A stretch of 64,000 nt of DNA, taken from the NCBI GenBank assembly GCA_963772455.1, contig CAVYXJ010000010.1, positions 384,001 through 448,000 on the forward strand, given 5' to 3'. Positions 34,051-35,662 of this stretch are shown one piece after another (position 1 is the first letter of the stretch; each line of letters opens with the position of its first letter). A program made the position numbers and the translations under genes. Origin of the DNA: Candidatus Bathyarchaeota archaeon (lineage in GTDB: Archaea > Thermoproteota > Bathyarchaeia > Bathyarchaeales > Bathycorpusculaceae). The notes beneath the pieces were generated by a model that worked only from the letters and a program-made list of their open reading frames with translations, was not told where the DNA came from and did not search any database.

Positions 34051-34707
34051 TTATTCTTCATATTTTGTTGGATCAGTGATGCTTGCTTCTTTGAAGGCTT
34101 TTTTGCGGTTGTTGCAGGATTCGCATTTGCCACAGTGTTTGACTCTATCACGATAACAGGACCATGTTAATTCAAAGGGTACGCCTAGTTCCGCGCCATC
34201 TTTGAATAGGTCAGATTTGCGTTTGCCGCTGAAGGGTGCTTGAATAATGATTTCTTCGCAGGTCCCCAATTGGGCAGCTTTCTCGAAGGCTTCGTAGAAT
34301 TCTCGTCGGCAGTCAGGGTAGAAGGGTTCATCTGAGCCTTGGGCGCCATAAAAAATTGTGTTAGCTCCAACAGCGACGGCGTAGGCTACTGCTGTAGAAA
34401 GGAAAATTGCATTTCGAAATGGTACAATGATTGGAGCAGTGAACTCCGAGGTCAAAGGAATTTCGGTATTGCAAAGTGACGTTACATCGTTAAAGATTTC
34501 TTTTAAGGCAGAGAGGTCAATAATTTTTGTAGTTGTGCCTAATTTTTTGGCGATTTGTTTGGCACATTCAGTTTCTTTTACGGCGATTTGTCCATAGTTG
34601 AAGGTAATGGGGTAAATTTGGTAGCCTTGGTTTTTTGCCCAGTAAGCGACTGTTGCAGAGTCTGGTCCACCGCTAAGAACGATAACACATTTTTTTGGAA
34701 GTTTCAT
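34051..34707 (-). CDS. queC: 7-cyano-7-deazaguanine (preQ0) synthase
   Basis: LSGGPDS, VPFRNAIF, YPDCR, TWSCY, HCGKCESC. Confidence 0.95.
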   Translation of the reverse strand: MKLPKKCVIVLSGGPDSATVAYWAKNQGYQIYPITFNYGQIAVKETECAKQIAKKLGTTTKIIDLSALKEIFNDVTSLCNTEIPLTSEFTAPIIVPFRNAIFLSTAVAYAVAVGANTIFYGAQGSDEPFYPDCRREFYEAFEKAAQLGTCEEIIIQAPFSGKRKSDLFKDGAELGVPFELTWSCYRDRVKHCGKCESCNNRKKAFKEASITDPTKYEE

Positions 34708-35241
34708 TTATTCTGCCTTCTGCATTTGTGGTTTCTTGTATTCTCCGAACCATCTTTGGAATATTTCAGTTCTCTTTAATAACTTGAAAATTGGCCATCC
34801 GATGAGTACGCTTGCAATGGCGTTTCCAAGGGCAACGTATGCTATGGTGGGAAGAAGCGGTAGCCCGTAAAGGTAGGATAACATCCAACCGACTGTTGTG
34901 CCTAAAACTGCAGAATAAGCTATGCAGGTTCCAATTACTGTGAAGTCTTTTTTGATGCGTTTGTAACCGTAGTAGACTAAAAAGGACATGGCAAACGAAG
35001 GTATAGTGTTTAGCAAGTCAATTGGACCTGCTGTTGAGAATATGTTACCAACGAATACTCCAAGTGTGTGACCAAAAACTCCCGCTAAACCAAGTAATGG
35101 AACAATAGCGAGCAAAGAGTCTGCTATTCGAATTTGAATTGGTCCATAAGAGAATGGTCCGAGAACAACAACTAGCGCTGCATAGAGTGCAGCATAAATC
35201 GCTATTAGAGCAATATTTTTAGTTCGTATTTTCAAGTGCAT
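34708..35241 (-). CDS. queT: QueT-family ECF S-component (7-deazaguanine precursor transporter)
   Basis: AIYAALYAAL...PFSYGPIQIRIADSL signature; abuts queC. Confidence 0.85.
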   Translation of the reverse strand: MHLKIRTKNIALIAIYAALYAALVVVLGPFSYGPIQIRIADSLLAIVPLLGLAGVFGHTLGVFVGNIFSTAGPIDLLNTIPSFAMSFLVYYGYKRIKKDFTVIGTCIAYSAVLGTTVGWMLSYLYGLPLLPTIAYVALGNAIASVLIGWPIFKLLKRTEIFQRWFGEYKKPQMQKAE

Positions 35242-35315
35242 TTTTCTCCCTACTCCCGGGTTTTATTTTGGTTGGCGGAACGGGTAGGAGAATTCACTCA
35301 CCCGCCAATTGCCCC
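35242..35315 (-). promoter_or_regulatory. Putative riboswitch-like leader of queT-queC
   Basis: TTGGCGG/CCGCCAA stem, A-rich AAAATAAAA tail, loop CTCCTACCCG able to pair with SD region CGGGAGTAGGGAG. Confidence 0.5.
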
Positions 35316-35394
35316 ATTAATTATTTGAGTTGCCTAAAAATGTTGTGAAAGATTTCATCGTAACTTGCGTTTGTTTGGTATATTTAAACTAATG

Positions 35395-35430
35395 TTAGTC
35401 AAGAAAGTTTGACTAAACTTAGTCAAGAAA
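35395..35430. repeat. Alternating direct/inverted TTAGTCAA triplet (putative operator)
   Basis: TTAGTCAA 35395-35402, TTGACTAA 35409-35416, TTAGTCAA 35419-35426, just after TATTTAAA. Confidence 0.55.
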
Positions 35431-35536
35431 CCTTTACGAAAATGCATTTATCAAGTGAAAAATAAAGCATGTCTATAGGAGAGCGAGGGACATGGCATTA
35501 AACCACTATGTAATAAATCATAGACTTCTAATACAA

Positions 35537-35662
35537 ATGCAAAAGAAAGGTTGCATTTTTTGCGCCATATGCCACCAACCTATTGTTGAAGGGCAGCGAG
35601 TGGCTTCAAGAAAATCTACAGCTGTACGTCATGAAGAATGTTATCAGAAATCATTTATTTAA
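35537..35662 (+). CDS. 41-aa zinc-finger microprotein
   Basis: MQKKGCIFCAICHQPIVEGQRVASRKSTAVRHEECYQKSFI; CxxC...HxxC. Confidence 0.5.
   Translation: MQKKGCIFCAICHQPIVEGQRVASRKSTAVRHEECYQKSFI

Follow-up and report, generated by a model that had tools for sequence, protein, structure and literature searches.

A conserved leader RNA before queT-queC in Bathyarchaeia, a predicted preQ0-sensing riboswitch

Described 7-deazaguanine riboswitches and the queT-queC leader

According to the passages of PMC11625349 that deal with these classes, preQ1-I riboswitches require a specificity C, as UC or AC, directly before the 3' strand of their P1 stem, and in type III of this class the Shine-Dalgarno (SD) sequence is paired inside the knot, while preQ1-II and preQ1-III share a ten-base C/U pocket with U-A-U triples. 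The same passages place preQ1-II (the COG4708 or queT motif) before queT, where its pseudoknot occludes the SD and thus controls translation. preQ1-II has been reported from Bacillota only, and preQ1-III (RF02680), also a pseudoknot in queT leaders, is about 100 nt long with five helices. As to archaea, a 2021 paper, in the part that bears on this question, gives the fluoride switch as the one natural riboswitch of archaea that had been determined by experiment, and presumes that in Thermococcus it acts on translation (PMC8241225). A 2017 census states, where it treats archaea, that these use few known riboswitch classes, and sparingly, and that bacteria share the fluoride and TPP classes (PMC5473149).

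The window analysed here is a 64,000-nt stretch of a Candidatus Bathyarchaeota genome. In it, the leader of queT-queC occupies positions 35310-35242 of the minus strand and contains a copy of a conserved RNA motif some 60 nt long (Table 1). An earlier note, made from the letters of this DNA, had proposed a 7-deazaguanine switch at this place; the sequence that it quoted matches exactly at 35315-35239 on the minus strand, but the 5' GGGGC that it counted into the element sits upstream of the predicted transcription start near 35310. Its naming of the downstream genes is borne out by profile matches, that of QueC being above the curated cut-off. As queC starts directly 3' of the queT stop, so that the two genes abut, its translation is probably coupled to that of queT. 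The ATG that was taken for the queT start is in place, but the in-frame TTG at 35235 may be the real start codon: it lies 10 nt downstream of the GGAG, the ATG only 4 nt, the mode of the family is 8-10, and several close relatives have only TTG at this site.

Table 1. Features of the queT-queC leader and of the genes behind it (window positions)
Feature	Position	Strand	Remarks
TATA-like box TTTTTAGG	35333..35340	-	predicted transcription start near A35310
P1 5' strand UUGGCGG	35302..35308	-	GCG invariant in 66/66 model-selected copies
Loop L1	35291..35301	-	near-invariant G-U, then GAGUGA; G and U 66/66
L1 GAGUGA	within 35291..35301	-	5' strand of predicted inner (anti-anti-SD) helix
Anti-SD strand CUCCUACCCG	35281..35290	-	P2 5' strand; 3' part doubles as inner-helix 3' strand
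L2 (variable base + conserved U) and P1 3' strand CCGCCAA	35272..35280	-	
Loop L3	35259..35271	-	ends in conserved A-N-AAA-H-CC; predicted pocket part
P2 3' strand	35246..35258	-	CGG, linker, Shine-Dalgarno GGGAG
queT	34708..35241	-	ECF S-component, QueT family; PF06177, E 5.6e-23; start ATG 35241 or TTG 35235
queC	34051..34707	-	7-cyano-7-deazaguanine synthase; TIGR00364, 196 bits, cut-off 150

Both pairings drawn in the earlier note can be traced in the letters. The 7-bp stem P1 joins 35308-35302 with 35278-35272, and the L1 G next to it pairs with the U that precedes the 3' strand of P1 (P1'). The loop-SD pairing, P2, joins the anti-SD CTCCTACCCG (35290-35281) to its complement at 35258-35246, which gives an H-type pseudoknot, and its anti-SD/SD part covaries among relatives (see below). 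The 3' end of the 16S rRNA of this genome (GAUCACCUCCU) is complementary to the SD of the leader. The genome uses SD sequences, SD-like words being present before 258 of its 732 long ORFs and, in a control window, before 51 of 732.

Seen against preQ1-I (types I-III), the motif is alike in its small H-type pseudoknot, its A-rich L3, the U after P1 and the control of queT/queC; the SD paired inside the knot is a likeness to type III. The U follows the G-U pair atop the P1 5' strand in 66/66 copies selected by the covariance model described below, and AAA is near-invariant. However, as the earlier note had suspected, the fit is imperfect, since there is no conserved specificity C and no Rfam score: the base before P1' is U in 60/66 model-selected copies and a gap in the other 6/66, and in 173 copies the preceding base is U 149 times, C 17 times and A 7 times. 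The last Watson-Crick pair of P1, at the place of the G-C pocket floor of preQ1-I, is G-C in 165 of these 173 copies and flipped to C-G in the other 8, although the invariant G-U could substitute for such a floor. The motif differs further in its long two-part P2, an inner competing helix, the tail A-N-AAA-H-CCC and its archaeal range.

In contrast to preQ1-II, the motif has neither an extra hairpin after the first stem nor a hairpin in L3. Its loop begins with G-U-G and is devoid of the conserved CUU, the C/U pocket and the U-A-U triples of preQ1-II and preQ1-III, which have four or five pairing regions where the motif has three helices; it is also shorter than preQ1-III and free of the pocket bases of that class. 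The Rfam models of preQ1-II and preQ1-III matched neither the region of the window nor 10 homologous loci, and at E<=10 Rfam 15 as a whole, the preQ1 models included, gave nothing relevant at this leader or in these 10 loci. The motif works like preQ1-I type III or preQ1-II, and belongs to neither. With the fluoride and TPP riboswitches it has in common the position in archaeal leaders but not, in the sets searched, their spread in bacteria. We found no published description in the open literature, while supplements of motif-discovery studies and subscription journals could hold one.

Conservation, covariation and gene context

Taken singly, the leader sequence is inconspicuous: its nested folding has a z-score of 0.10 and 104 of 200 shuffles fold equally well, hence the case rests on comparison. 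The earlier note had made its proposal depend on conservation and covariation in orthologous leaders, and both were found. The motif lies in the leaders of 27 of the best 30 queT loci, and a covariance model built from 23 copies finds, apart from one site in this genome, matches in 94/151 genomes of the class (73/95 of the high-quality ones), in 29/151 genomes of the phylum and in 26/151 genomes around an Asgard-titled record, but in 0/151 around a Clostridia-titled record, the sole bacterial phylum sampled; Euryarchaeota, Thermoplasmatota and DPANN lay outside this search. QueT-like matches are present in 232/301 class genomes. One long match from the phylum (L221, 26 bits) was excluded; it does not precede queT or queC.

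A pattern scan of species genomes points the same way. Among the matches listed, at least 119, all 80 archaeal-titled ones pass the model and 38/39 bacterial-titled ones fail it; the single exception (L164) scores 28 bits and has no queT or queC match downstream. None of the 38 viral pattern matches passes. The archaeal titles among the matches listed are Bathyarchaeia, Nitrososphaerota, Methanomethylicus, Thermoprotei, Promethearchaeota and Hodarchaeota. In the sets searched, the motif is nearly confined to archaea.

Among the 66 copies that the model alone selected, GCG, the G-U that follows P1, CGC, AAA and CCC are invariant or nearly so; in L3 the A is kept in 65/66, the three bases of AAA in 66, 65 and 66, and CC in 66/66. 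Several of these near-invariant bases are unpaired, as a predicted binding pocket would lead one to expect. Two structural subtypes, useful as natural mutants for defining a minimal aptamer, stand out: an Asgard-group form (L234-L249) with a 2-nt insertion before L2 and the non-standard SD UGCGAG, and a second one (L018, L189-L193, L220) with AA in place of GG in the CCG/CGG helix.

Of the cells of the seed alignment, 94.9% are paired. It has a covariation score of 0.230, where shuffles reach 0.108 and slid registers do not exceed 0.141. For larger samples, 173 distinct copies were parsed; the pattern used for this has the core bases fixed, and core counts in this set thus hold by construction. 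Changes were placed on a FastTree QueT tree of 121 copies. In P1, the flips from G-C to C-G have four origins on this tree, with both sides changing together, though they supply 3 independent pairs only; the outer pair of P1 changed in the same direction in 6.7 and in the opposite direction in 0 of 9 independent pairs (p 0.016). P2 is stronger with its true partner (mean -16.0 kcal/mol) than with swapped ones (-13.8 +/- 0.16; 173 copies). The distal anti-SD/SD part, which is absent from the search pattern, behaves likewise in a held-out metagenome set of 115 copies (-12.0 against -10.1 +/- 0.17 kcal/mol); these permutation controls ignore relatedness. The length of the anti-SD C-run tracks that of the SD G-run in 81/95 copies where both are readable, although as a trait on the tree this falls short of the 0.05 level (p 0.06). 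SD variants are mirrored in the loop (CUCGCA/UGCGAG, CAUCUC/GAGAUG, CCGA/UCGG), while CCG/CGG hardly covaries, with one clear double change, and is lost in 7/173 copies.

When 128 distinct copies were chosen by the RNA rather than by the protein, the next gene was queT in 116, a QueE-like gene in 5, an ECF-S-like gene in 4 and the contig end in 3; among Asgard-group copies 25/26 precede queT, and one Bathyarchaeia copy (L013) lies directly before queC. In the held-out metagenome scan, the matches listed (at least 120) include 116 distinct ones, of which 103 lie before queT, 2 before QueE-like and 2 before ECF-S-like genes; of the rest, 5 stand at a contig end and 4 do not pass the model. The QueE-like radical SAM genes have QueE as their best match, with scores below the curated cut-offs. 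Downstream genes are thus almost only those of 7-deazaguanine transport or synthesis.

At six loci (L054:1567-2268, L060:1564-2259, L185, L186, L328 and L389) a membrane protein of about 232 aa replaces queT behind the motif. It has no Pfam or NCBIfam match in the four copies scanned, its comparison with the QueT profile is not significant, and only the Atlas labels it as an ECF S-component (score 0.94); it is a candidate for a new 7-deazaguanine transporter. Separately, QueC without QueD is common in the class (35 against 13 of 151 genomes; compare 34051-35241 in the window), which suggests that these archaea salvage 7-carboxy-7-deazaguanine via QueT.

Transcription start and the two predicted states

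The TATA-like box (Table 1), taken with the canonical archaeal spacing of TATA elements, -30 to -23 from the start, places the predicted start of transcription near 35310, at the foot of P1. Upstream of GCGG, the 173 copies show an A+T peak at 29-35 nt and an A-rich, BRE-like zone at 37-40 nt; the held-out set repeats both, with A+T of 90% at -30. A sigma-70 promoter scan is unsuited to archaea. The earlier note had held that a start downstream of the element would speak against it; the predicted promoter lies upstream. Metatranscriptome contigs of relatives join the leader and queT. This hints, though weakly, at transcription of the leader and at a nearby 5' end, and the placing of the element in the UTR rests on these contigs together with the TATA spacing. 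In five runs, belonging to five study codes, contigs end at 35297-35298, inside L1, with adapter directly behind in two of these runs and an uncertain library type in one; one fragment reaches 35303, and others, including one from a run that is probably DNA, extend further upstream. Missing contig cover is uninformative. The predicted start does not explain the sharp contig end in L1.

The hairpin that the earlier note proposed as a means of freeing the SD did not fare well. It is drawable, at -11.6 kcal/mol where P1 has -16.7, but it shows no compensatory change: it is weaker than P1 in 173/173 copies, carries a C-C mismatch in all 8 copies with the P1 flip, and has no same-direction change on the QueT tree. 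Most copies still allow it, and it may occur as a transient form. The nested minimum usually combines P1 with a helix within the P1 loop, formed in most copies by GAGUGG with CCACCC. The central pair of this inner helix is U-A in 115, G-C in 19 and C-G in 4 of 171 copies; true loops reach -14.3 against -13.6 +/- 0.14 for swapped halves (0/5000 permutations, 108 unique loops, relatedness again ignored); and on the tree its changes run in the same direction in about 5 of 11 pairs and never in the opposite one (p 0.06, short of the 0.05 level). The inner helix is thus the better candidate for the ON state. Both it and P2 covary, and in copies whose inner helix closes a loop of four bases the two are mutually exclusive, because this helix then overlaps the anti-SD.

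The median stacking energy of P2 exceeds the gain from the inner helix by 11.5 kcal/mol, before any pseudoknot penalty, and such penalties are of this order. The present copy has a weak inner helix, at -3.1 where the mean is -8.4 kcal/mol, and its P2 stacking amounts to -17.5; owing to this gap of 14.4, the copy may lean towards OFF, and the knot might form here even when no ligand is bound.

In the mechanism that we propose, transcription would begin at the foot of P1, so that the element would make up the whole 5' UTR. When the ligand is absent, P1 would close and the inner helix (GAGUGG/CCACCC) would hold the anti-SD, leaving the SD free. When preQ0 is present, near-invariant bases at the P1/P2 junction (the G-U pair, the U, the anchoring G-C pair and A-N-AAA-H-CC) would build a pocket by which P2 (CCG/CGG and anti-SD/SD) is favoured. 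P2 would then shut off queT and the coupled queC, and would limit both the import and the synthesis of archaeosine precursors. The leader would in this manner act as an OFF switch on translation, burying the queT SD in a pseudoknot, and would form a new riboswitch class with preQ0 as its predicted ligand.

Predicted ligand and competing explanations

The leader is a real, strongly conserved cis-regulatory RNA, with features generally expected of a riboswitch: a conserved, covarying cis element of a predicted 5' UTR before functionally coherent genes. Its P2 and inner helix, which overlap, may serve as the expression platform. Judged from comparison of sequences, it is likely a small-molecule riboswitch, and probably one of an undescribed, archaea-centred class; that it represses translation in dependence on preQ0 we consider fairly probable. 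The earlier proposal of an undescribed archaeal switch before queT-queC stands as regards conservation, covariation, the lack of Rfam matches, the upstream promoter and the gene context, and gives way in its ON hairpin and in preQ1 as a ligand.

As to the ligand, this genome (92% complete) has ArcTGT, and neither a QueF or QueD match nor a QueE above the cut-off. Among 151 class genomes, ArcTGT passes the cut-off in 138, QueC in 35, QueD in 13 and QueF in 1. ArcTGT inserts preQ0, as stated in the relevant part of PMC4770233. The prevalence of ArcTGT and the near absence of QueF favour preQ0 over preQ1 as the predicted ligand and make preQ1, which had been considered as the sensed compound, unlikely. 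preQ0 would also be the single compound that importers have in common with queC-only salvagers and de novo makers; an OFF switch on queT, queC and queE would fit end-product feedback. Gene context does not separate preQ0 from related compounds. A second arcTGT-like copy (G000:C1:159-1524, L223) is in two pieces in different frames, the intact gene being on C4.

The same riboswitch with another ligand (the free archaeosine base, 7-amido- or 7-carboxy-7-deazaguanine, or preQ1) is a rival reading that we regard as unlikely. The same structural evidence applies to it, and the presence of queT-queC in this genome, where a QueD match and an above-cut-off QueE are absent, suggests uptake of a precursor that comes before preQ0. 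On the other hand, it makes little sense for queC to be repressed by its own substrate, and most class genomes are devoid of QueC as well as QueF.

Next, and improbable in our judgement, is a protein-bound translational operator, in which idle ArcTGT, QueC or another regulator would stabilise the knot. The invariant loop bases could be a protein site, and a part of PMC4770233 suggests that ArcTGT may act on RNAs other than tRNA. However, the motif is nearly invariant from Bathyarchaeia to the Asgard groups and occurs where QueC is absent, and among the first genes downstream, to which the survey was confined, there is no regulator.

The sharp contig ends inside L1, with adapter directly behind in two runs, might instead mean that the fold acts mainly on RNA processing or early termination, through a nuclease cut or self-cleavage in L1, and less on access of the ribosome. 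We hold this to be quite improbable: the ends come from contigs only, and from relatives, the bases at 35297-35298 vary, other contigs extend upstream, and the SD pairing covaries. Moreover, a loss of 10-15 nt at cDNA 5' ends would produce the same contig ends.

A little less probable still is a far-diverged preQ1-I type with the same binding mode, for which the small H-type pseudoknot, the U after the P1 closing pair, the A-rich L3 and the que genes could be cited, against a P1' without the invariant specificity C before it, an A-run with three more conserved bases behind it, a P2 of much greater length and the missing Rfam score. Least credible of all is a DNA element, namely an inverted-repeat operator with ATAAA as the TATA box, about 25 nt before the ATG, of a leaderless transcript, as ATAAA is not constant at its T (T 92, G 33, C 32 and A 16 of 173), a separate TATA lies upstream, the pairings are interleaved and tolerate G-U, and the leader is present in contigs from RNA libraries.

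Returning to the preQ0-sensing riboswitch, we lean, if only slightly, towards a broader reading, by which no earlier class would be native to archaea, here the TACK and Asgard lineages, or selective for preQ0. It would have a new pocket, act as a strand-exchange switch of archaeosine-precursor salvage and mark an unannotated ECF S-component family as 7-deazaguanine transporters. That most Bathyarchaeia carry the motif, and that it extends to Methanomethylicia, Nitrososphaeria and Asgard groups, would alter the sparse picture of archaeal riboswitches. If the reading is true, the motif would be a fourth RNA solution for 7-deazaguanine sensing, probably with the preQ0/preQ1 selectivity reversed, and the supply of archaeosine would be under feedback control; it could also yield a compact translational switch for archaeal genetics.

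Beyond the queT leader, and facing away from queT, lies an element of about 58 nt (35394-35452, plus strand) composed of TTAGTCAA/TTGACTAA repeats with a BRE/TATA-like end after them. More than 25 copies similar to it occur in the genome; it matches many unrelated contigs and is probably the operator-promoter of a large regulon. Just behind it, at 35492-35662 on the plus strand, is an ORF of 56 aa with Cys and His residues (CxxCxxC...HxxC) and an SD-like run.
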